A stretch of 52,191 nt of DNA from an uncultured Chryseobacterium sp. GTDB taxonomy: Bacteria; Bacteroidota; Bacteroidia; Flavobacteriales_F; PHOS-HE28. Where the stretch lies: the NCBI GenBank assembly GCA_964418285.1, contig CAYQMC010000001.1:1-52191 (forward strand). The letters are read 5' to 3'. The translations under genes were made by a program, and so were the position numbers. This document shows, piece after piece, positions 8,653 through 32,090 of this stretch. The notes beneath the pieces were generated by a model. That model saw only the letters and a program-made list of their open reading frames with translations, was not told the origin of the DNA and searched no databases. Position 1 is the stretch's first letter. Each line of letters starts with the position of its first letter.

Positions 8653-8914
8653 GGCAGTGTGCCCGGCCAATGCATGGATCGGCCGTGGACTCCCACTTCC
8701 TGATCCGCAAGAAGGATCACGGAATTCTCGGCGGTCCCACCCTCCGGGACCGATCACGTTCACCCCTTGCATAAAGGACACACGGCCCGGTGCATGGCAG
8801 TGCATGGCAACGCCGTGGAATAAATGGCTCGCCTGCGGAATTAGGGTTGAAGGCCCGACACTGGAGCACATCCAAGCCCATCGATCTGACGCCCGAGAGT
8901 CAAGAGAGGAATGT

Positions 8915-21058: not shown

Positions 21059-24000
21059 TCACTCCACGATGAGCCGCTGCTGCTTCATGATACCGTTCGT
21101 GTACACCACCTGCACGATGTACACACCAGGGCTGATCCCGTCCAGTGCGTAGTGCTCATCCGGGAGCATTTCATGGACCTCTCGCCCGCTGGCATCCAAG
21201 AGCAGCACATGCCGCAAAGCATCCTTGCCCAGTATTCGGAACATTCCGCTTGCCGGGTTCGGGAAGATGGTAGGTCCGGTCATCCTATCCGTACCACGCA
21301 CGGCCATTGTGGGGCTCCAAGAAAACTCCCCGTTGTGGTCCACCTGTTTGATCCGGTAATAGGAAATGCGATCGCTCGGATTAGGGTCAAGGTGGGTGTA
21401 ATCCGATAGCTGTTGTGTGGTTCCCTGGCCATCCACCCAGGCGATCTGTCGGAGATCCACCTCGCCATCGATCATGCGCCATACCTCGAAACCGGCATTG
21501 TCGAGTTCGGTGGCGGTGGTCCACTGCATCAATACTTCGCCTTCGGTGATACGTTCAGCAGAGAAGGAAAGCAGCTCCACCGGCAGTGGTAGACCGAAGG
21601 TGGTGATGTACAGTTCACCGTCGTCATCCAATACAGCGGTATAACCGTGCGTTCCCCCGTTGCCTTGGATACGTGGCTCCAATGCCGGAGCTGCCGGGTA
21701 TAAAGGCGTCCATATGTTGCCCGGTGGGTTGTTCATCAAGGAGCAATCCTCCATCGGACCTGCATAATGGGCCACCCCGGCATCTGCAGGGACACCTACG
21801 GCGGGATCCGCCGTGGCATAAGTGCCGAATTCATCCCCGCTGTGGAAGAGCCGCACGATGGCACCGGTGGTGATGGGGAGCTGTGTGCTGAGCTGCCAGT
21901 TGCGATCCAGGTAGTGTTGGCCGATGAGGCTTTGACGCACCGGGCCGTTGTTCACGTATACGTTCATGTTAACAGTACCGAGCACCTGGCCATTGTCGTT
22001 GAAGCGCGCCACCACCTTGCGGTCTTTGTAGATCCATTGGTCCTGTCCGCCGCCTGTACTGGTGATGGGGTCGGCCGGACCACAGGTGTTGAAGGCTTCG
22101 TTCCAGAGCTCGGGCGTGAATTCGTAGGCACCCATGTCCGGCAGTGTGGGGTCGCGCGGCAGGCCATCCTTGTCCGTGGTCACACCGGGGAAGGGTTGTG
22201 CCGCATCGTTGATCTCCATGCCGTATGCATGCAGGTCGTTGTTCCCATCGTAATACTTGGGGTCCGCAATGATCGAGTTCGCATTCGTGCCGGTGGCCAG
22301 GCTGAGCGTGGCGATGTCGGTATGGGTCCCACCCCACAATATCGCCAGTGGAAAGAAGCCAGTGGTATGGAAGCAGTTGTGATCGCCTTGTACCCCCGTA
22401 TTGGTGACATACACAGGGTTGGTGCCGGTGCCGGAGAACACATTGTTCCTGACATTGACCTCGGTGCCAGTGCCGGATGCCGCGTACAAAGCGTACCCAT
22501 CGTAGCGCTGCATGTGGAAGCTGTTGTGGACGACATCGATGCGCTCCAGATCTCCACCGATGTTGATCCCCAAGCGGCCTCGATAGAGGAATTCGTTGTT
22601 CGCGATCAATGCTCTGGAAGGCGCCAACGGCGCCACGTTGTACAGTGTCAAGCCCGATGCTGTGGTTGACGCTATGCTGTGCACCTTGTTCTTCGTGAAG
22701 GTGAACGGCCCCGTACAGTTGGAGAGGGCGACCGCGAACTGGTCGCGGCCTTCGAGCTGGTTGCCGCTCATGGTCAAGGTTCCAGCGAAGTTCGCGAAGT
22801 AGAATCCCGCATTCGGAGTGGTGCGGATGCAATCCGTGATCGATATGTGTTCCATGGGTCCTCCGGTGGTCCACCACATAGCGGAATAGCCTCCGCTCAA
22901 ATGACATGCCTCCAATTCGAGCTGTGGTTCTCCCGGACCGTTCTCCCTTTCGATCAAATGGCCGTTATTGTTGGTCGCAAAGATGTACAGTACAGCGCAG
23001 TTCCGAAGCCTCAGGTATTGATCGCCGGTCGCATTCGGATCCACGTACACGACCCGCTTGTACTGTGACCCACCGGGCCTGTTGAAGGTGATGTGTTCCA
23101 TGCTGACCCACTCCATACCGCGCCAATGCATCAAGTGATTGTTCGCAGGAGTGAAACTCGCGGGCCACTCCACACGCACCAACGAGCTGTCCATGGACAT
23201 CCCCCTGAAGGTGATCGTGTTCACACTGCTGTTCCCTGACACCGGTGCAAGGTCCAACTGTTCGTTGTATGTGCCATCCTCCACTTCAAAGACCACCGGG
23301 CCGTTGATCCCGCAGTTCTGCATCTTGCGGATTGCCGAGGTGAACGACGGGAAATCAGCAACCACCGATGGGCCAATGGTGTAGGTGCCGTTCAGGGTGA
23401 AGCAGTACTCCGTGGTCTCATCCGCGCCGATATCGGGCATGGTGGCCACCGGCTGTGGTCGCGGCTCACCATCGGCATCCGCCGTAACGCTGGCAAGGGG
23501 GGTGCCGTTCCCGGCGCAGGGGGATCCGCTCTGGAGGTGCAGATCGCTTACGGCGTTCACGTACAACGGGTCCTGGTTCCTGGAATTCGCATCGAATCCC
23601 GTGGCCGCGTTCAGGTCGGCGATCGTGGAATGCGTTCCATTCCACGTTGCGAAGGAGCTGCCGCTGCCGAGGTAATAGCAGTTGTAGTCGGCTTCGGAAA
23701 CAGCGGTCAGGTCCTGCACTCGTATCGCTAGAAAGGTGGGCGAGAAGAAACTATTGTTGATCAGACGGACCTCCGCGCCTGGTCCACCCGTGATGTCGAC
23801 CCTGCCCGAGCAACTGTTGTGGAGCATGTCCACGTACTGAACGGTCTGGAGGACGCACGCCGCACCCGTGCCTCGCATGAAGTTGTTCACGAGCAGGCCC
23901 TTGTTCGTGGGTGTGCCTACGCAGTTGCTGATCAGGAGCGCCGTTGAAGCGTTGGAGTACATGCGATTGCCGCGGAATTCGAAGCCGCCATCGCAATCGC

Positions 24001-24760
24001 TGAGCACATTGTTCAGGAAGAGGGCGGAGACCACCGTGTTGCTCGTGAAGAGATTATCGATCAGATGGACGCCGCCATCCACCGCATTGAACAGGATGCC
24101 TGAGTTGTACAGGACATTGCCCTCCATCCGGATCTCATCCGCCAACGAAGAGCCCCTCCAGTACACGGAATAGCGTCCATTTTCAAAGCGGTTCTCCGTG
24201 AACCGGATACCGGTCTGCAGCACCGCATCATCCACGTGGACCAGGTTCTGGTTCGCCGGTGCCGGAGCTGGGTTCACCACCCCTTGGAAACGACAACGTC
24301 GGAAGGTGATGTCCGCTGCGGGACCCTGGATCGACACCACATGTGCGTAGGTGGCCGATCCGGCGCGTCGAAAGGAAAGGTGCTCGAAGGTGATGTGCTG
24401 CGCGCCATTGATCCGTACCGCATAGTTCGGGTTGAAGGTGGTGCTGGTGGACGTGGATACGATGACGTTGGCCAGGGTGCTGTCCAGGGCCTGCCCCCGA
24501 AAGGTGATGGTGTTGGTCGCGGATGCGCCGGCTATCGGGGAGACGACGACCCGTTGGAAATAGCTCCCATTCGCCACCTCCATCACCACGGGACCGTTCA
24601 CCCCGAGTGTATTCAGGTCGGCGATGGCGGCCGCGAAGGAAATGTAGTCACCACCACCTCCGGGATCGATCACATACGTGCCGCTCATTTGGGCATGCAC
24701 CGGGGTCATCGTGAACACGAACAAGAAGAGCGCTGCACTGTGCCGAAGTTGGGAGAACAT
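21059..24760 (-). CDS. Giant T9SS-secreted protein with two right-handed parallel beta-helix modules and a type-A CTD
   Basis: ATG 24760 gives MFSQLRHSAALFLFVFTMTPVHAQ (signal peptide); the track start at 24784 is a TTG. There are two homologous modules, starting GTYVIDPGGGGDYISFAAAIADLNTLGVNGPVVMEV...NTITFRG and GTYTIGPSVVADFPSFTSAIRKMQNCGINGPVVFEV...NTITFRG. Each is followed by N-rich beta-helix repeats and a D.DG.PR...DIGA.E end. An Ig-like domain and the CTD (IFPNPASGMFRILGKDA...GVYIVQVVYTNGIMKQQRLIVE) follow. Confidence 0.85.
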   Translation of the reverse strand: MFSQLRHSAALFLFVFTMTPVHAQMSGTYVIDPGGGGDYISFAAAIADLNTLGVNGPVVMEVANGSYFQRVVVSPIAGASATNTITFRGQALDSTLANVIVSTSTSTTFNPNYAVRINGAQHITFEHLSFRRAGSATYAHVVSIQGPAADITFRRCRFQGVVNPAPAPANQNLVHVDDAVLQTGIRFTENRFENGRYSVYWRGSSLADEIRMEGNVLYNSGILFNAVDGGVHLIDNLFTSNTVVSALFLNNVLSDCDGGFEFRGNRMYSNASTALLISNCVGTPTNKGLLVNNFMRGTGAACVLQTVQYVDMLHNSCSGRVDITGGPGAEVRLINNSFFSPTFLAIRVQDLTAVSEADYNCYYLGSGSSFATWNGTHSTIADLNAATGFDANSRNQDPLYVNAVSDLHLQSGSPCAGNGTPLASVTADADGEPRPQPVATMPDIGADETTEYCFTLNGTYTIGPSVVADFPSFTSAIRKMQNCGINGPVVFEVEDGTYNEQLDLAPVSGNSSVNTITFRGMSMDSSLVRVEWPASFTPANNHLMHWRGMEWVSMEHITFNRPGGSQYKRVVYVDPNATGDQYLRLRNCAVLYIFATNNNGHLIERENGPGEPQLELEACHLSGGYSAMWWTTGGPMEHISITDCIRTTPNAGFYFANFAGTLTMSGNQLEGRDQFAVALSNCTGPFTFTKNKVHSIASTTASGLTLYNVAPLAPSRALIANNEFLYRGRLGINIGGDLERIDVVHNSFHMQRYDGYALYAASGTGTEVNVRNNVFSGTGTNPVYVTNTGVQGDHNCFHTTGFFPLAILWGGTHTDIATLSLATGTNANSIIADPKYYDGNNDLHAYGMEINDAAQPFPGVTTDKDGLPRDPTLPDMGAYEFTPELWNEAFNTCGPADPITSTGGGQDQWIYKDRKVVARFNDNGQVLGTVNMNVYVNNGPVRQSLIGQHYLDRNWQLSTQLPITTGAIVRLFHSGDEFGTYATADPAVGVPADAGVAHYAGPMEDCSLMNNPPGNIWTPLYPAAPALEPRIQGNGGTHGYTAVLDDDGELYITTFGLPLPVELLSFSAERITEGEVLMQWTTATELDNAGFEVWRMIDGEVDLRQIAWVDGQGTTQQLSDYTHLDPNPSDRISYYRIKQVDHNGEFSWSPTMAVRGTDRMTGPTIFPNPASGMFRILGKDALRHVLLLDASGREVHEMLPDEHYALDGISPGVYIVQVVYTNGIMKQQRLIVE

Positions 24761-24819
24761 GGCCGAAATCGCTTTGGTGTGCAAATTCCCACATCACCAT
24801 CGCGCAGTTCAAGTCGCAA

Positions 24820-24852
24820 TGGGTGAACGACCGATCCTGTTGGGTGAACGAC
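24820..24852 (-). promoter_or_regulatory. Candidate LytTR-regulator operator: exact 12-bp direct repeat TGGGTGAACGAC x2, 21-bp period
   Basis: Copies lie at 24820..24831 and 24841..24852 (plus strand). On the gene-sense strand this reads GTCGTTCACCCA-N9-GTCGTTCACCCA, immediately upstream of a TTG(-33-like)...TTTG promoter-like stretch. The proximal copy ends 59 nt before ATG 24760. The same core with the same period occurs at 26557..26589. Confidence 0.55.
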
Positions 24853-25167
24853 ACAGGGTAAGTCCAAAGGGAAGGAACAGGACTTGGTGGAGCATTGGTC
24901 CCCCGAGGACCTTCGCCGGTCAGCAGCAATGATCCCATTGCCCCGCACTTGGCCAGCTCTGCAAAGCAACGCGGGGCACAGGCCTCCATTCCCGGTATCG
25001 GCTGTTCGAAGAAGTCCGGGGTGCCCGTAGCCTCCCTTCGCTCCTCAACTCATCCACCGGTGGTGCAAGCAGCCCATGGTCCGGGGCTACCATCACGGAC
25101 GGTGCAAGGTCCGTTCAGTTCAGCCCTGAAATGGAAGAAGAAGTTCCGTTGGGGAGCAGTAGCGCCT

Positions 25168-26508
25168 TCACGGCGCAGTGAACTTGTTCAGCAGGCCCTT
25201 GCCCTTCTTGAGGATGTCGTTGGGGCCGTTGGAGGTGGAGTTCGTGGTGGACGATCCGCTCGTGGTGTTGGGCGCTGTGGCTTGTTGCACCGCTTTCTGT
25301 GCCCCGGATGTCGGCTTGCAGAGCATGCCCGGCTCGTAGCTGTTGATGCGCGCGATATCATCCGGACTGGTCAGCATCCACACTTCCAGCGCGCTGATCT
25401 TGTAGGTCTCGCCGGTCTTCTGGCCGTTCTTCCAAGTGCCGCCACCTTTGGTGAGGGCCATGCGCGTGTGGGCGTCCTGCGTGGCGTTCCACCATTCCAT
25501 CATATCGGCTTGCTGATGCTTCACGCCGGGATCCGCGCAGTACTGTTGTGCATAGGTGCTTTTTCCTTTGAAAGCGTTGTTCACGGCCTTGTTCACCAGG
25601 TCCGCACCGCGCTCTGTCAAGCGGATCGTGCTTCCCTCCACGAAGTGGTGCGGCGCAAGCATGCGCATCAGGTAGGCCTCGAACTGTTCTGCCGTGCTTT
25701 CTCGAAGCAGCTTGTGTGTGTACATGAACACGTCCACGTCACGCGCGAACTCCGGGATGGTCACCTCGCCCAAGGCTGCCAAGGCTGCGGCAGCCTGCTC
25801 TTCTTCCACACGACTGCCGATGGTGGGCATGGCGCGGATCTCCTCCGAAGTGAAGGTGCGTTTGTTCTCCTCCTTCGTTTCCTTTTGCGTGGTGATGAGG
25901 TTGGGTTTCCATGGACCGCTTACTTCATCGCGGTAGAAGCGTGTTTCCTGGATCACGGTCTCGGTGGCCACCTCGGTGTTGCTCACGATCCGATCCCCGA
26001 CCACTTCGAACTGCATGCTGAAAGACAATGGTGAGTGCCACTCGGTCTTCGGTTCGTCGGCCACGCGGATGCTCTTCAGGTCCACCATGCTATTGTACCG
26101 GTACGAGCTGAGGAAGGCTTTGAGGTTCGCTTTCGCATGGGCCAGGATGTCCGCCTCCGAAGGTGTGGGGATGCCTTCGTAGGTGTTGTTGGTGGTCTTC
26201 CATTCCCGGTAGCTCGGCGGGTTGCCTGTGTGGTAGCGGGCGAACCCGGATACCACCACCTGCGCGTTGGGGTATTCCGCGATCCCGGCAGGTAACCAGA
26301 TGGTGGCACCTCGCTCCCAGAACCACTGCGTGTGCGCATCGCTCCATGACTTCTTGGTGGTTCCCTTGGAGAGTTCCACCTTGAGTTGCTTGGGACTGGC
26401 GATGTCCTTCAGTATCTGGGCATCACTGGGTTGTGCGAACGCAGCGATCGCCGTAAGGCTGATGGCCGCAACAAGGAGGGCAAGCCGGATACGCATCTTC
26501 GTGGACAT
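25168..26508 (-). CDS. Secreted protein of unknown function (446 aa)
   Basis: Signal peptide MSTKMRIRLALLVAAISLTAIAAFAQ, balanced K/E/N/T composition unlike the R/G/H-rich antisense ORF 24895..26034, and a Ser/Thr/Asn-rich C-terminal tail. No domain recognised. Confidence 0.75.
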   Translation of the reverse strand: MSTKMRIRLALLVAAISLTAIAAFAQPSDAQILKDIASPKQLKVELSKGTTKKSWSDAHTQWFWERGATIWLPAGIAEYPNAQVVVSGFARYHTGNPPSYREWKTTNNTYEGIPTPSEADILAHAKANLKAFLSSYRYNSMVDLKSIRVADEPKTEWHSPLSFSMQFEVVGDRIVSNTEVATETVIQETRFYRDEVSGPWKPNLITTQKETKEENKRTFTSEEIRAMPTIGSRVEEEQAAAALAALGEVTIPEFARDVDVFMYTHKLLRESTAEQFEAYLMRMLAPHHFVEGSTIRLTERGADLVNKAVNNAFKGKSTYAQQYCADPGVKHQQADMMEWWNATQDAHTRMALTKGGGTWKNGQKTGETYKISALEVWMLTSPDDIARINSYEPGMLCKPTSGAQKAVQQATAPNTTSGSSTTNSTSNGPNDILKKGKGLLNKFTAP

Positions 26509-26556
26509 TTGGGTTCACGAACTTGCGACGGATCCATGGTATAGTGCCGTCCCGAT

Positions 26557-26589
26557 CGGGTGAACGTCGGAATGGGTTGGGTGAACGGA
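26557..26589 (-). promoter_or_regulatory. Candidate LytTR-regulator operator: direct repeat with GGGTGAACG core x2, 21-bp period
   Basis: CGGGTGAACGTC lies at 26557..26568 and TGGGTGAACGGA at 26578..26589 (plus strand). The site abuts the stop codon of the LytTR regulator gene (26590) and ends 48 nt upstream of ATG 26508 of the secreted-protein gene. Confidence 0.55.
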
Positions 26590-27330
26590 TCAGAGCGTAC
26601 GGATCCGCGCCATCAGCGCCTCCTTGTACGTCTTCCCCACGGGGATCACCTGCGTGCCCATGCGCACACAGCCGTCCTCCACAGCGGTCACCTTGCGGAG
26701 GTCCACCACGTAGCTGCGGTGTATCCGCACGTGGTGCGGACTGTTCAACTTCTCTTCCACGGCTGCGAGGGTGCTGGTGATCACGTACTTCTTCGTCGGT
26801 GTGTGCAAGGTCACATAGTTGTCGTCCGCTTCCGCCAACCGGATCTCGGCCAGGGGCACTTTCACCAAGCGGCCTTTGTCGCGTACGAAGATGCTGTCGT
26901 CGATCACGAAATCGCTCCGTTGGGCGGTTTCGGGCTGGGTGCTCACGTCCAGCTTTCCGGCGGTGCGTGCAAGGGCCACTTCGATCTGTGTGTGCAGGTC
27001 GTTCTCATCGAAGGGTTTGATGATGAACCCGGCTGGCCGCACTTCCTTGACACGATCCAGGGTCGCCTTGTCCGCGTGGCTGGTCACGAAGATGAAGGGC
27101 GTGGGATGCTTCGCGTTGATGGTGGACGCCAGTTGGACGCCGTCGGCACCATCGCCCAGGTTGATGTCCAGGAGCAAGAGGTCCGGCTTATGCGTGATCA
27201 GTTCGGACATCGCATCCAAGGCGTTGTCGCATACGGCGCACACGGCGTAGCCGAGCTCGTCCAGATGGGCGCGCAGGTCCTCCGCGATAAGCGGTTCGTC
27301 CTCCACCACGATGATGCGTACCGCGTTCAT
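26590..27330 (-). CDS. LytR/AlgR-family response regulator (REC + LytTR DNA-binding domain)
   Basis: REC domain: IIVVEDEPLIAEDL...PDLLLLDINLGDG...FVTSH...GFIIKPF. LytTR domain: IFVRDKGRLVKVPLAEIRLAEADDNYVTLHT...FVRIHRSYVVDL. The start overlaps the kinase stop (ATGA). Confidence 0.9.
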   Translation of the reverse strand: MNAVRIIVVEDEPLIAEDLRAHLDELGYAVCAVCDNALDAMSELITHKPDLLLLDINLGDGADGVQLASTINAKHPTPFIFVTSHADKATLDRVKEVRPAGFIIKPFDENDLHTQIEVALARTAGKLDVSTQPETAQRSDFVIDDSIFVRDKGRLVKVPLAEIRLAEADDNYVTLHTPTKKYVITSTLAAVEEKLNSPHHVRIHRSYVVDLRKVTAVEDGCVRMGTQVIPVGKTYKEALMARIRTL

Positions 27331-29159
27331 TGGACCTTCTTGTACTTGCGGATGATGAGCCGGGCCAAGGTACCACCGTCCCGGATCACGCTGTGCTCGG
27401 CGCCCAACTTCGAGGAGAACGACCTGATCATGTTCAGCCCGAATCCGGTGCCCTCGGCATTGCGGGGTGCAGCCGGATCATAGCCGATGCCATCGTCGTG
27501 CACATCGAGTATCAGCACATCGGCGGGTCGCCCCTGCGGGTCAACGCCACTGTTGCCTTCCCCAGCGGTCTCGTACATGGCTATCGATAGCACTCCCTTC
27601 CTTCCGTCGGGCCACGCGTATTTCAGCGCGTTGGTGATCAGCTCGTTCAGGATCAAGCCCAGTGGGATCGCGGTGTCCACATCCAAGGTCATGGGTTGCA
27701 CCTCCATGTTCAGCGCAACGCGATCGGCCTGCACCTGGTGGCTGCTCATGAGGCTGCGCGCAAGCTTCTCCACATAACCTGGCATGCTGATCCCGGTGAG
27801 GTCATCCTCCTTGTACAGGTCCTGGTGGATCAGTGCCATGCTCTTCACACGGTCGCGTCCATCGCGCACGGCACCGCGCGCCTTCTCATCGGTGATACCA
27901 CGGCCTTGTATGCTCAACAAGCTGCTCACCACTTGCAGGTTGTTCTTCACGCGGTGGTGGATCTCGCGCAACAGCAGTTCCTTCTCCTTCAGTTGCTCCT
28001 CGATGATCGCGTTCTTCTTGGCCAGTTCTCCTTCGGCTTTGCGCTTCACACGGTACGCGCGGTAGGCGAACACAGCCGCCAAGAGCAGCAGGACCGCACC
28101 CACCACCACGGCCCGTATCGTGATCGCGCGTTGCTCCAGGGCGGCGGCGCGCTCGGCCAATAGCGCATCCTTCTTCCCGCTTTCGTATTTCTCGCGCACC
28201 TCGGCGATCTGTGCACTGCGTTCGGCATTGAGCAACGTGTCGTTCAAGGCCGTCATCTCCTTGTAGTGGATCAAGGCGGAATCCATGCGGCCGATCGCTT
28301 CGAAGTGCTCGCTCAAATGTCCTTCACCATCGGCCGCCACTTTCGACCCGCCGTTGGCGCGTGCGATGCGCACCCCTTCACGCAGGTGGATCAACGCACT
28401 GTCGCGAATGCCGTTCGCATCCATCATTCGGCCCAAGTTGATCAGCAGGCTTGCGCGGTTCAGCTCATCTTCGCCCACGGGATGCACCGCCAGTGCAGAG
28501 CGAATGGTGGCCAGGGCCAGCTCGGGGTCGCCTCGGTCCAAGTAGCACACGGCCAGGTTCATGCGCACCTGGGCGATGGATGACCGCTCACCGAGTTCGG
28601 TAAGCATGCGATCCGCCAATTCATAGTAGACCACTGCACTGTCCTTTTCACCCTCATAGAAGTGGATGTTGCCCAGGTTGTTGCCCACGTTGGCGATCCA
28701 TGCGGTATCCCCCAGCGCTTCGAATCCGTCCAGCGCAGTGCGGTATTCACGTGTGGCCTCCGCGAAACGGGAATCGTGCTCCAGTACGCTGCCCACGTTG
28801 TTGTGCGCCATGGCCGTGTACCAAGGGTCATCGCCCTGCTCGAAATGCGATAGGGCAGCTACGTAGTGTCGCAAGGCACCATCCTGTTCCCCCTTGGCGG
28901 AATAGCACATGCCGGTGTAATTGTGGCCTTTGCCGATCTCCAAGGCCACCCCGCTGGCCTCCGCTAGTTCCACATATTGCCTTGCGAAGAACAAACCGCT
29001 ATCCGGATCGCTGAATACCGTGGCACGCAACAGTGCAGTGAGCACCGGTAGTCGCGCGGTGTCGTTGGGCAAGCTGTTCAGCACGCGGAGCAGGCTGTCC
29101 AATTGGGCTTCACTGGACAGCGAAGCCGAGCAGGCAAGAACGATCAGGAGCCAACGCAT
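27327..29159 (-). CDS. Sensor histidine kinase: signal peptide, extracytoplasmic TPR repeats, one TM, HisKA_2 + HATPase_c
   Basis: MRWLLIVLACSASLSSEAQ, multiple TPR-like repeats, TM segment AVVVGAVLLLLAAVFAYRAY, H-box EIHHRVKNNLQVVSSLLSIQ, N-box LNELITNALKYAW and G-box DDGIGY...GFGL. Confidence 0.9.
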   Translation of the reverse strand: MRWLLIVLACSASLSSEAQLDSLLRVLNSLPNDTARLPVLTALLRATVFSDPDSGLFFARQYVELAEASGVALEIGKGHNYTGMCYSAKGEQDGALRHYVAALSHFEQGDDPWYTAMAHNNVGSVLEHDSRFAEATREYRTALDGFEALGDTAWIANVGNNLGNIHFYEGEKDSAVVYYELADRMLTELGERSSIAQVRMNLAVCYLDRGDPELALATIRSALAVHPVGEDELNRASLLINLGRMMDANGIRDSALIHLREGVRIARANGGSKVAADGEGHLSEHFEAIGRMDSALIHYKEMTALNDTLLNAERSAQIAEVREKYESGKKDALLAERAAALEQRAITIRAVVVGAVLLLLAAVFAYRAYRVKRKAEGELAKKNAIIEEQLKEKELLLREIHHRVKNNLQVVSSLLSIQGRGITDEKARGAVRDGRDRVKSMALIHQDLYKEDDLTGISMPGYVEKLARSLMSSHQVQADRVALNMEVQPMTLDVDTAIPLGLILNELITNALKYAWPDGRKGVLSIAMYETAGEGNSGVDPQGRPADVLILDVHDDGIGYDPAAPRNAEGTGFGLNMIRSFSSKLGAEHSVIRDGGTLARLIIRKYKKVQ

Positions 29160-29181: not shown

Positions 29182-30168
29182 TCAGAACTGCGGTCTTTCC
29201 GGCTCGTTGTCCAGCACCTTGGCGATGCGCGCCAGCACTTCAGGGGTGAGCAGGTCCTGCGCCTCGCTCGCCTTGAGGTTCTCCTTGAGCTGCGCCTCCT
29301 TGCTGGCGCCCAGGATCACGGTGCTCACATTGGGGTTCTTCAGGCACCAGGCAAGGGCCATCACCGGCAGCGAGAGCCCAAGACCATCAGCGATCTTGTT
29401 CAGCTTCTCCACGGTCTTCAAGCGGGCGGGTGTGAGCTCGCGTTCGCGCAACCAGTCGAGTCCTGCCATGGTAAGGCGCGTGCCTTTCGCGGCCTTGATG
29501 TCGCGGTGCTTGCCGGTGAGAATGCCACTGGCCAGAGGGCTCCAGATCGTGGTGCCCAGGCCTACGGTCTTGTACACCTGGTCGAACTCCACCTCCACCT
29601 TGTCGCGGTGGAACATGTTGTATTGCGGCTGTTCCATGACGGGGGCGATCAGGTGGTGTTGATTCGCCACCATATGTGCTTCCATGATCTCCTGCGCGCT
29701 CCATTCACTGGTGCCCCAGTAGAGGATCTTGCCGCTCATGATCAGCTGGTGCATCGTCCACACGGTTTCGGCAATGGGCGTATTCTTGTCCGGGCGGTGG
29801 CAGAAGTAGAGGTCGAGATAGTCCACTTGCAGCCGCTGCAGCGCGGCGTTGCACGCCTCCACCAAGTGCTTGCGGTGCAGACCCACCTGGGTCGGCAATT
29901 TGCCGCCGGTGCCGAAGAAGGCCTTGCTGCTCACGATCCAGGTGTCGCGCGACCACTTGGTCTTCTTCAGGATCTTCCCCATCACCTTCTCGCTCTCGCC
30001 ACGAGCGTATATCTCGGCGTTGTCGAAGAAGTTGACCCCGTTGTCATAGGCGGTCTTCATCAGCTTCTCAGCAGTAGCATCGCTGATCTGTTTGCCGAAG
30101 GTGAGCCAGCTGCCCAGGGAGAGTTCTGAGACTTGAAGACCGGAGGTGCCGAGGCGACGGTAGCGCAT
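29182..30168 (-). CDS. Aldo/keto reductase, Kv-channel beta-subunit-like (AKR6-like)
   Basis: Internal ATG at 30168 gives MRYRRLGTSGLQVSELSLGSWLTFGKQISDATAEKLMKTAYDNGVNFFDNAEIYARGESEKVMGKILKK, which closely parallels Kv-beta/AKR N-termini. Confidence 0.9.
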   Translation of the reverse strand: MRYRRLGTSGLQVSELSLGSWLTFGKQISDATAEKLMKTAYDNGVNFFDNAEIYARGESEKVMGKILKKTKWSRDTWIVSSKAFFGTGGKLPTQVGLHRKHLVEACNAALQRLQVDYLDLYFCHRPDKNTPIAETVWTMHQLIMSGKILYWGTSEWSAQEIMEAHMVANQHHLIAPVMEQPQYNMFHRDKVEVEFDQVYKTVGLGTTIWSPLASGILTGKHRDIKAAKGTRLTMAGLDWLRERELTPARLKTVEKLNKIADGLGLSLPVMALAWCLKNPNVSTVILGASKEAQLKENLKASEAQDLLTPEVLARIAKVLDNEPERPQF

Positions 30169-30314
30169 GGTGGTGGAGTTGAAGGGTATGGTTTGCCGAT
30201 GCGGACGTTGATGGAACAAAGGTCGGGGCTTAAGGTGGGCCGTTGGCAATTGAAGGAGGGGTCCTTGCGCATATGTGCTTTCCGGATATCTTTCACCACC
30301 ACGATACACCTCCC

Positions 30315-32090
30315 ATGACCCCATCCTTACCCGCGCGATACCTCGTTATCGCTTTGTTGTGCGTCAGTGTGCGTTCCCTCGCCCAGTGCCCCAATTGTGT
30401 GGCCGAGGTCACCTGTACGGCTTCTCCGGCGTACCCCACGTTATGTCCCGCCCAGCCACCTGATGCCACTGCCGGCGAGTTCTACGAGTCGGACATCACG
30501 TTCTGGTTGCCCACCCAGTTCACCGATCCGGGCACCGGCTTCGATGTCACCTTCCAGCAGATGACCATCACCAGCGTTACAGGGCTGCCCTTCGGACTCA
30601 CCTTGGAAACGAGTTCGCCGGATGGCATCTATTTCCCACAGCAAAGCCAGTATGGCTGCGGCCGCATCTGCGGCACGCCCGTTGGCCCTGGCACGTTCGA
30701 TATCACCATCAGTATCATCGCTGGTGTCACCTTTTCGGGCATCGATATCGATGCGCCTGAGCAGTTCACCATACCGCTGGTCGTGCTACCGGGCAGCGGT
30801 GGCAACAGCAGTTTCACCTTTGGTCCCACCTCCGGCTGCGGCAGCGTGGAGGTCGCTTTCGAGGCACTTATCGATGCCACCCCTTCGCCCATGAGCTACG
30901 ACTGGGACTTCGGCAACGGTGTTTCAAGCACGGAGCAGGACCCTATTGTCACCTTCGATGAGCCCGGATCCTACACGGTCGAACTGGAGACCACGATACT
31001 GGGTTATGTGCTCGATGCGGTCAACGTGAACGGGTTGAACGGAAACTGGTGTGGCGATGTGGAAGAGGCCTTCTGCAACTGCGGAACCCCGATCATCGGC
31101 ACCTGTCCGGATCTCTACTTTGTGCTAAGCAATGCCAATGGCCCCGTGTACACCAGTCCTACGAACGGCGGGGGCACCAGTACGTCATGGTCGGGCCTGG
31201 GGATCGCGTTGCAGGATCCTCCTTATGCGATAACCGTGTGGGACGAGGATCCTGTGAGCCAGGACGACAACCTCGGCACCTACGCTATCGTTCTTGATCC
31301 AGGTGCCACGTATGGGTTCAATGTGGCCGGTGGAACCAACGGTGTGCTGACCATCGACCTGGTAGCCCTGCAGACGTTCAACGACACCGATGTGGTCGAG
31401 GTGTTCGACCTGCCGGAGGTTGTCGTGGAAGCGCAGCCCAATGGCCAACTCTGCGTGGCCGATACTGCCCTGGTGGCCTACACCTGGTTCCTCGATGGCG
31501 ATACCGTGCCGGATGCTTTCGGACCTTGTGTCGTCCCCACAGGCCCCGGCTTGTGGTGGGTGGTGGCCACCAACGGGTTCGGTTGCACGACCCAGAGCGA
31601 TACGCTCGTTGTTTGCCCTCAGGTGGCAGTGGTCCAGACCGGGGCGGTCCTCTCGGTTCCTGCAGGATTCAACAACTATGTGTGGAGCTATGGCGGTATT
31701 GCACTGCCCAATGGCAATGGACCGGCCATAACCGCTGGTGCCGATGGCCTCTACACCGTAGTGGTGCAAGCCGAGAACGACTGTGAGATCACGGCAACCT
31801 ACATGTACAGCACGGTCGGTATCGCCGAGCTGGAAGCTGCAGGAGGTGGGATCCTGGTCTACCCCGTTCCCAACGATGGTGTGTTCACCGTGGAGGCCGC
31901 CGGGCTTACCGGCGCCAGCGCAGGCCTGCGCATTTCCGATATGAGCGGGCGTATCGTGTACGAGTCCCGGGAACGGATCGCCTTGGGCCGCTTGCGTGCA
32001 GCGCTGATGCTCGATACGGCCCCAGGACCGTATGTGGTCCAGGTATGGGACGAAACACGGAGCTTCACCCAGCGGATCATGGTGCGGTAG
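30315..32090 (+). CDS. T9SS-secreted protein with PKD domain and type-A CTD
   Basis: Internal ATG at 30315 gives MTPSLPARYLVIALLCVSVRSLAQ. The PKD-like segment is YDWDFGNGVSSTEQDPIVTFDEPGSYTVELETT. The CTD is VYPVPNDGVFTVEAAGL...LRISDMSGRIVYES...GPYVVQVWDETRSFTQRIMVR. Confidence 0.8.
   Translation: MTPSLPARYLVIALLCVSVRSLAQCPNCVAEVTCTASPAYPTLCPAQPPDATAGEFYESDITFWLPTQFTDPGTGFDVTFQQMTITSVTGLPFGLTLETSSPDGIYFPQQSQYGCGRICGTPVGPGTFDITISIIAGVTFSGIDIDAPEQFTIPLVVLPGSGGNSSFTFGPTSGCGSVEVAFEALIDATPSPMSYDWDFGNGVSSTEQDPIVTFDEPGSYTVELETTILGYVLDAVNVNGLNGNWCGDVEEAFCNCGTPIIGTCPDLYFVLSNANGPVYTSPTNGGGTSTSWSGLGIALQDPPYAITVWDEDPVSQDDNLGTYAIVLDPGATYGFNVAGGTNGVLTIDLVALQTFNDTDVVEVFDLPEVVVEAQPNGQLCVADTALVAYTWFLDGDTVPDAFGPCVVPTGPGLWWVVATNGFGCTTQSDTLVVCPQVAVVQTGAVLSVPAGFNNYVWSYGGIALPNGNGPAITAGADGLYTVVVQAENDCEITATYMYSTVGIAELEAAGGGILVYPVPNDGVFTVEAAGLTGASAGLRISDMSGRIVYESRERIALGRLRAALMLDTAPGPYVVQVWDETRSFTQRIMVR

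Follow-up and report, generated by a model that had tools for sequence, protein, structure and literature searches.

The 33-bp interval at 26557-26589 of the window (the whole stretch of DNA analysed, 52,191 nucleotides) is, judging from its sequence and with a probability that we put at roughly 0.8, an operator of the adjacent REC-LytTR response regulator, from which an internal promoter of the downstream gene for a 446-aa secreted protein would be activated. A first-pass annotation had already proposed this regulator as the binding protein, and the proposal appears well founded: the gene encodes a receiver and a LytTR domain, the layout of the site follows published precedent, the repeats are conserved, and the site is kept together with the 446-aa gene. 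LytTR sites consist of two direct repeats of 9-11 nt that lie 11-13 nt apart, with no universal consensus and with flanks that matter (PMC4847170), and a review of AlgZR describes repeats of 8-13 bp about 12 bp apart, the exact spacing of which is crucial (PMC4064291). The features of the locus are the following.

29182-30324, minus strand: aldo/keto reductase gene.
27327..29159, minus strand: sensor kinase gene (signal peptide, TPR, HisKA_2, HATPase).
26590..27330, minus strand: gene of the REC-LytTR response regulator, the presumed binder (Pfam Response_reg 5.2e-23, LytTR 4.6e-18).
26579..26587, minus strand: distal half-site R1, core CGTTCACCC, within the 12-mer TCCGTTCACCCA (26589-26578).
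26567..26578, minus strand: 12-nt spacer between the cores, AACCCATTCCGA, kept in length and variable in sequence.
26554..26566, minus strand: proximal half-site R2, core CGTTCACCC (26566-26558) with its GATC flank (26557-26554).
26547..26549, minus strand: expected -33 (TTG) position, which reads CGG here and TGG in several relatives; weak or absent.
26518..26525, minus strand: predicted -7 box CAAGTTCG, agreeing with the Bacteroidota sigma-A element TAnnTTTG at 4/6 specified positions.
26510..26515, minus strand: predicted transcription start zone, around 26513, extrapolated from a -7 box at -12 to -5.
25168..26508, minus strand: target gene, 446-aa secreted protein, conserved start ATG 26496.
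24821..24850, minus strand: sister site (site 2), CGTTCACCC-N12-CGTTCACCC.
21059-24760, minus strand: gene of a beta-helix protein of about 1233 aa (right-handed beta-helix, choice-of-anchor Q, T9SS C-terminal sorting domain).

On the plus strand the interval contains CGGGTGAACGTC (26557-26568) and TGGGTGAACGGA (26578-26589), and re-reading returned the two repeats reported at these positions, starting 21 bp apart, with text and coordinates exact. On the minus strand, which is the sense strand of the gene, the core CGTTCACCC is present in two exact copies of the same orientation (26587-26579 and 26566-26558) with a 12-nt spacer and a 21-bp period, an arrangement that corresponds to the two direct repeats of about 9-11 nt found in LytTR operators. 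Past the regulator stop codon TGA (26592-26590) this strand runs TC-CGTTCACCC-AACCCATTCCGA-CGTTCACCC-GATC, the R1 core beginning 2 nt past the stop codon, so that the distal repeat abuts it. The repeats had been said to fill the space between this stop codon and a point 48 nt before ATG 26508; the coordinates stand, but the distance has to be revised, since orthologues start at a codon aligning with the second ATG (26496-26494, M5, nearly invariant) and the repeats thus probably end 60 nt before the real start. The likeness that the first-pass annotation saw to a second site at 24820..24852 in architecture, orientation and core was reproduced, both sites reading exactly CGTTCACCC-N12-CGTTCACCC on the sense strand of the downstream gene.

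The 9-mer CGTTCACCC occurs six times in the 52-kb window versus 0.90 expected, a count reached in 0/100 shuffles, and four of the six copies belong to this pair and to the pair at 24850-24821. The two lone copies, at 8757-8765 and 24595-24603 (both plus strand), are a chance-level number (0.9 per window); the one at 24595-24603 is inverted and sits within the beta-helix gene, about 160 nt in. The pattern 9-mer/N12/9-mer, when up to 3 mismatches are allowed, matches three times in the window against an expectation of 0.07, and the matches comprise two exact ones (the present site and 24821-24850) and a third with 3 mismatches inside a 667-aa ORF. A weight matrix built from 34 sites and trained on sites of other genomes only gives 44.9 bits to the present site and 39.5 bits to its sister, compared with 8.7 bits for the next best position in the window and maxima of -1.9 to 12.1 in 10 shuffles. 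The copy counts, the pair pattern and the matrix scores together indicate that the 52 kb hold exactly two sites. The first-pass argument that two such sites speak for function rather than chance is therefore strengthened by the excess of exact pairs and by the matrix scores, and also by conservation in relatives.

A scan of species-representative genomes with an alignment of the 446-aa protein returned 32 loci. From these, 22 distinct intergenic regions between regulator and 446-aa gene, all from Flavobacteriales MAGs, were anchored on the proximal repeat, 21-22 of them being used per analysis; we refer to sites before the 446-aa gene as class A and to sites before beta-helix genes as class B. 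The consensus of the 22 anchored regions is CGTTCACCC-N12-CGTTCACCCGATC. Mean pairwise identity in these 22 distinct orthologous regions amounts to 0.90 for R1, 0.39 for the 12-nt spacer and 1.00 for R2, whose core is identical in 22/22 regions, as is the GATC after it (1.00); further along the orthologous regions the values are 0.36 for the 28 nt following GATC, 0.71 for a box cA[A/C]GTTCG and 0.43 beyond this box. Because the downstream 446-aa protein is only 38-88% identical across those loci, the repeats and their 12-nt spacing appear to be under strong purifying selection, with the spacer sequence free to vary. The spacer is 12 nt long in the window, at the sister site and in all class A loci except L015, an error-prone and frameshift-ridden assembly, and this length falls within the constrained 11-13 nt of LytTR operators. 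Moreover, 35 distinct sites show hardly any variation in the GTT core, and every site detected in the related loci lies on the gene-sense strand.

The order kinase, regulator, site and 446-aa gene is conserved in Flavobacteriales MAGs, where the genes that typically come next encode a 613-aa beta-helix protein, a standalone LytTR-only protein of 105 aa and a large beta-helix protein. No motif was found in loci of other lineages that carry a distant 446-aa homologue and lack such a regulator (L017, L019, L027, L028, L030-L032). L014, L016 and L022 have a gene other than the regulator upstream but retain the site, the GATC and the downstream box before the 446-aa gene; the element should accordingly be assigned to the promoter of this gene rather than to the regulator gene's 3' end. 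In six related sites (L006 5942, L010 5939, L013 5938, L024 283, L025 5932 and L026 5944) a degenerate third half-site GCGTTC[G/A] follows R2 by about 20 nt and overlaps the place where a -33 element is expected; a good third half-site is missing from the window, which reads CACTATACC there.

One might suppose that the pair is a chance repeat or a functionless leftover of a local duplication, and the bare pair pattern is indeed common in metagenomes, mostly as unrelated 21-bp tandem arrays. A metagenome-wide scan for the bare 30-nt pattern gave at least 120 matches, and among the matches listed only L044, L045, L069, L081 and L143 are members of the family; since the matches are mostly unrelated tandem repeats or chance hits, the bare pattern is not diagnostic without its context. 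In a number of unrelated metagenome contigs (L048, L058, L063, L079, L082, L107, L129, L131, L148 and L151) CGTTCACCC recurs every 21 bp in long tandem arrays in which the entire 21-nt unit is repeated, a different kind of element. Against chance stand, however, the two exact pairs where 0.07 would be expected per window even with up to 3 mismatches, the 44.9 bits obtained with an independent weight matrix, and a site that is near-invariant where the flanking protein is only 38-60% identical, and against local duplication stands the fact that the two intergenic regions share no similarity outside the sites. We give this explanation practically no weight; as far as a chance origin is concerned, it is excluded for practical purposes by the conservation data.

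Downstream of the repeats, the box cA[A/C]GTTCG lies at +40/+41 from the start of R2 in 21/21 class A loci, the offset from the first base of R2 being 40 nt in 19 loci and 41 nt in the window and its closest relative, L001. Some related sites carry CACGTTTG at the box position, which matches TAnnTTTG at 5/6 positions, and class B boxes, located at +39/+40, read GGAATTTG, GGATCTTG or GGAACTTG, with GCTGGAC, CTTGAAC or TTTACA at the expected -33 position (about +15 to +22 from the R2 start). At +19 from the start of R2, a G shows moderate conservation. The sigma-A promoter of Bacteroidota is composed of a -33 TTG and, about 20 nt downstream of it, a -7 TAnnTTTG, and in Flavobacterium psychrophilum the latter box spans -12 to -5 (PMC9723704). 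Taking the box of the window as such a -7-like element would place 26589-26557 at about -76 to -44, with the distal core at -74 to -66 and the proximal core at -53 to -45, in good agreement with the -40 to -75 anticipated in the first-pass annotation. The predicted start zone includes a conserved CCAA. In all 38 sites examined, 64-72 nt separate the first base of R2 from the start codon, the value being 70 nt here (ATG 26496) and 69 nt at the sister site (ATG 24760). As the -33 position reads CGG, the promoter looks intrinsically poor, which is expected if it depends on an activator. A sigma-70 promoter scan, which is not designed for Bacteroidota promoters, found none. The GTTCGT box was also considered as an ECF-sigma element, a reading that found no support, as no conserved AAC-type -35 element accompanies it.

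The GTTCG box could also be a third, weaker LytTR half-site rather than a -7 box. It fits the generic LytTR consensus too, and as a -7 element it matches TAnnTTTG at only 4/6 positions, with the -33 element essentially missing in the window; its distance from R2 in the window is, however, 43 nt and not 42.

A terminator scan found none between the regulator gene and the site, and the sole terminator-like site in the scan lies inside the 446-aa gene on the opposite strand. Without an intervening terminator, read-through from the kinase and regulator genes probably adds to any internal promoter and could even account for most of the expression of the 446-aa gene. The conserved element could in principle exert its effect in the transcript instead, be it as a structure in the 3'-UTR or between the cistrons, as an attenuator or as a leader of the mRNA of the next gene. 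A single-sequence fold of 26490-26600 gives z = -2.5, and in many orthologues the stretch between the -7-like box and the ATG is able to fold into a short hairpin (21 loci, mean z -0.79). Nevertheless, an Rfam search of 24000-27500 returned no match at E <= 1, RNAalifold found no consensus pairs in 21 orthologous regions, and class B sites show no such inclination to form a hairpin (mean z -0.25); together with the lack of an intergenic terminator, nothing that would mark a structured RNA or a terminator was found. Besides, identical direct repeats with a freely varying spacer are the signature of protein-DNA half-sites and not of a helix, and we judge an RNA element very improbable. The class A leader hairpins (26494-26525 in the window; L003, L004, L007, L009, L016) have 5-7 bp, differing stems and a CCAA-containing loop. 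An apparently covarying leader hairpin was judged not convincing on the per-sequence folding scores given above for the two classes, and neither this weak hairpin tendency nor the z of -2.5 finds support in covariation.

The binder presumed in the operator reading, the full-length regulator, has an intact receiver as read from its sequence (ED at 10-11, D55, T83, K105). A LytTR gene is thus directly linked to the site, and the linkage is conserved across MAGs. A sequence comparison of the LytTR domain alone with the PDB gave no significant match, and AgrA was not retrieved. The kinase consists of about 320 aa of extracytoplasmic TPR sequence, one transmembrane segment (about 345-367) and then HisKA_2 and HATPase. 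The kinase stop and the regulator start overlap at 27327-27330 (ATGA), suggesting translational coupling of the two genes. The aldo/keto reductase gene is separated from the kinase gene by 22 nt and is syntenic in several relatives. Upstream of the kinase gene, neither the window nor the relatives showed a site with up to 3 mismatches, and autoregulation is accordingly not evident.

Might the repeats be bound by a different protein, either another LytTR protein, such as the standalone one of 105 aa in relatives, or an unrelated factor? The LytTR-only gene is present in most related loci, and its stop codon directly precedes the class B site in L010, L020, L025 and L026. The 52 kb of the window lack the standalone gene but have both sites intact, and the full-length regulator is the constant neighbour in site-bearing loci; we hold a different binder to be quite unlikely.

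A somewhat less remote option, albeit still an improbable one, is that the LytTR regulator binds the repeats but represses or brakes expression, either by blocking the path of polymerases that read through from the kinase and regulator genes or by repressing in the manner of PlnD. Only 2 nt and no terminator separate the regulator stop from the site, and polymerase arriving from upstream must therefore cross it; in addition, LytTR regulators with a repressing action on repeats of this type are known, PlnD being one (PMC2714321). What speaks against repression is the fixed distance to the promoter-like box, which is kept in L014, L016 and L022 where no regulator gene lies upstream, and which is also kept at the sister site behind 315 nt of non-coding DNA. 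Moreover, activators typically sit at positions such as -76 to -44 (PMC5600425). We thus infer that the regulator binds the pair, activates rather than represses, and sets transcription off at the predicted start zone.

The product of the target gene has a Sec signal peptide (...AIAAFA/QP) and only 45 detectable homologues; those with a source name come nearly all from Flavobacteriales MAGs. No Pfam or NCBIfam family matched the protein. A confident AlphaFold2 model with a mean pLDDT of 85 found no fold match in the PDB, the best E being 0.028 and TM-scores by query length reaching at most 0.14 among the matches listed. The tail (about 401-446) is disordered and comprises a variable low-complexity linker rich in Ser/Thr/Asn/Gly, and the C-terminus carries a conserved peptide ND[IL]LKKGKGLLNK[LF]TxP.

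At the sister site, a TTG (24812-24810) and GGAATTTG (24789-24782), with a spacing of 20 nt between the two, follow the repeats before ATG 24760; GGAATTTG is as far from R2 as the predicted -7 box is at the present site. The beta-helix gene most likely starts at this ATG and not at TTG 24784, which overlaps the predicted -7 box. The non-coding DNA in front of this site (24853-25167) was searched for a remnant of a standalone LytTR or a 613-aa beta-helix gene and contains none, nor does it resemble any related locus except in the site. In most related MAGs the 613-aa beta-helix and 105-aa LytTR-only genes lie between the 446-aa and the large beta-helix genes (for example L001 7338-11400 and L006 7338-9519); the window lacks both and has the 315 nt of non-coding DNA in that place. 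In class B of L010 (9182-9517), L020, L025 and L026, CGTTCACCC begins right behind the TGA with which the standalone LytTR gene ends; the same arrangement of stop and repeat is found at the response-regulator gene, TGACGTTCACCC. That both LytTR genes end on a site could go back to an ancient duplication of a unit comprising LytTR domain and operator.

We propose that the TPR/HisKA_2 kinase senses an extracytoplasmic cue and phosphorylates the regulator at D55, upon which the regulator would dimerise and its two LytTR domains would bind the two CGTTCACCC half-sites. With 21 bp, or two helical turns, from one half-site to the other, both domains would sit on the same face of the DNA. The proximal half-site with its GATC would end about 4 nt before the degenerate -33 position and 31-32 nt before the weak predicted -7 box CAAGTTCG, so that a dimer bound at about -76 to -44 could recruit or stabilise RNA polymerase on an intrinsically poor promoter, the transcript starting about 17 nt upstream of the conserved ATG 26496. 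The same regulator may use 24850-24821 to drive production of the T9SS-secreted beta-helix protein. With two exported targets, the regulon would be a small set of exported proteins, and through this system the production of such proteins appears to be tied to an extracytoplasmic signal.

A more adventurous idea is that the locus is an autoinduction circuit of a new type, in which the C-terminal peptide of the 446-aa protein, or the whole protein, is the ligand of the kinase TPR domain. TPR domains are reputed peptide binders. Beyond this reputation, the idea draws on gene linkage and secretion with no further specific support, and we consider it a long shot; if true, Bacteroidota would have a counterpart of the peptide quorum-sensing loops under LytTR control (Agr, Com, Pln).

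We know of no LytTR operator that has been characterised in Bacteroidota. A search of open-access text found no LytTR binding site described for this phylum, and a search for the motif string returned primers and unrelated sequences only. The site at 26557-26589 is best described as a clean, conserved candidate LytTR operator with a probable Bacteroidota-type promoter in an unstudied lineage, of a kind that is already known and hence not surprising, and it leaves the general view of how LytTR regulators act unchanged. It nonetheless provides a testable operator/promoter model for an uncharacterised TPR/HisKA_2 and REC-LytTR system of uncultured, GC-rich Flavobacteriales, and it defines a compact putative regulon of exported proteins, comprising an orphan-fold secreted protein and T9SS beta-helix proteins. 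The CGTTCACCC-N12-CGTTCACCC motif and the 34-site weight matrix can be used for regulon annotation in metagenome-assembled genomes.

Among known systems, a close parallel is offered by the P2 and P3 promoters of AgrA in Staphylococcus aureus, where two 9-nt direct repeats with a spacing of 12-13 bp lie just upstream of the -35 region, a REC-LytTR regulator is bound and a weak promoter is activated; the GTT core is common to these sites and the window (PMC5600425). The AgrA consensus is [TA][AC][CA]GTTN[AG][TG], with repeats 12-13 bp apart and upstream of -35 (PMC5600425), and compared with it TCCGTTCAC of the window agrees at 7/8 and GACGTTCAC at 6/8 specified positions, both being recognisable as LytTR half-sites. 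The differences are also clear. The half-site here is CGTTCACCC(GATC), which probably has a length of 12-13 nt, is rich in GC and is essentially perfect where the AgrA repeats are imperfect; the promoter appears to be of the Bacteroidota -33/-7 type; the kinase is of the TPR/HisKA_2 kind and not an AgrC-type HPK10 kinase; and, unlike in Agr, neither an autoinducer peptide nor an AgrB-like gene is evident, nor was a site found upstream of the kinase and regulator genes.

AlgR of Pseudomonas aeruginosa, which also belongs to the LytTR family (PMC4064291), recognises the core CCGTTCGTC, the first six bases of which, CCGTTC, are identical to those in the distal half-site of the window (tCCGTTCACC). 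AlgR sites are often single 9-mers at variable, distant positions and in either orientation, whereas the two repeats here stand strictly in tandem, with their distance from the predicted promoter fixed. ComE, PlnC/PlnD, BlpR, VirR and YpdB/BtsR differ from the present case in their half-site sequences, in their origin from Firmicutes or Proteobacteria and in having known signals, but share with it repeats of 9-11 nt, a spacer of 11-13 nt, a critical spacing and important flanks (PMC4847170; PMC4064291).
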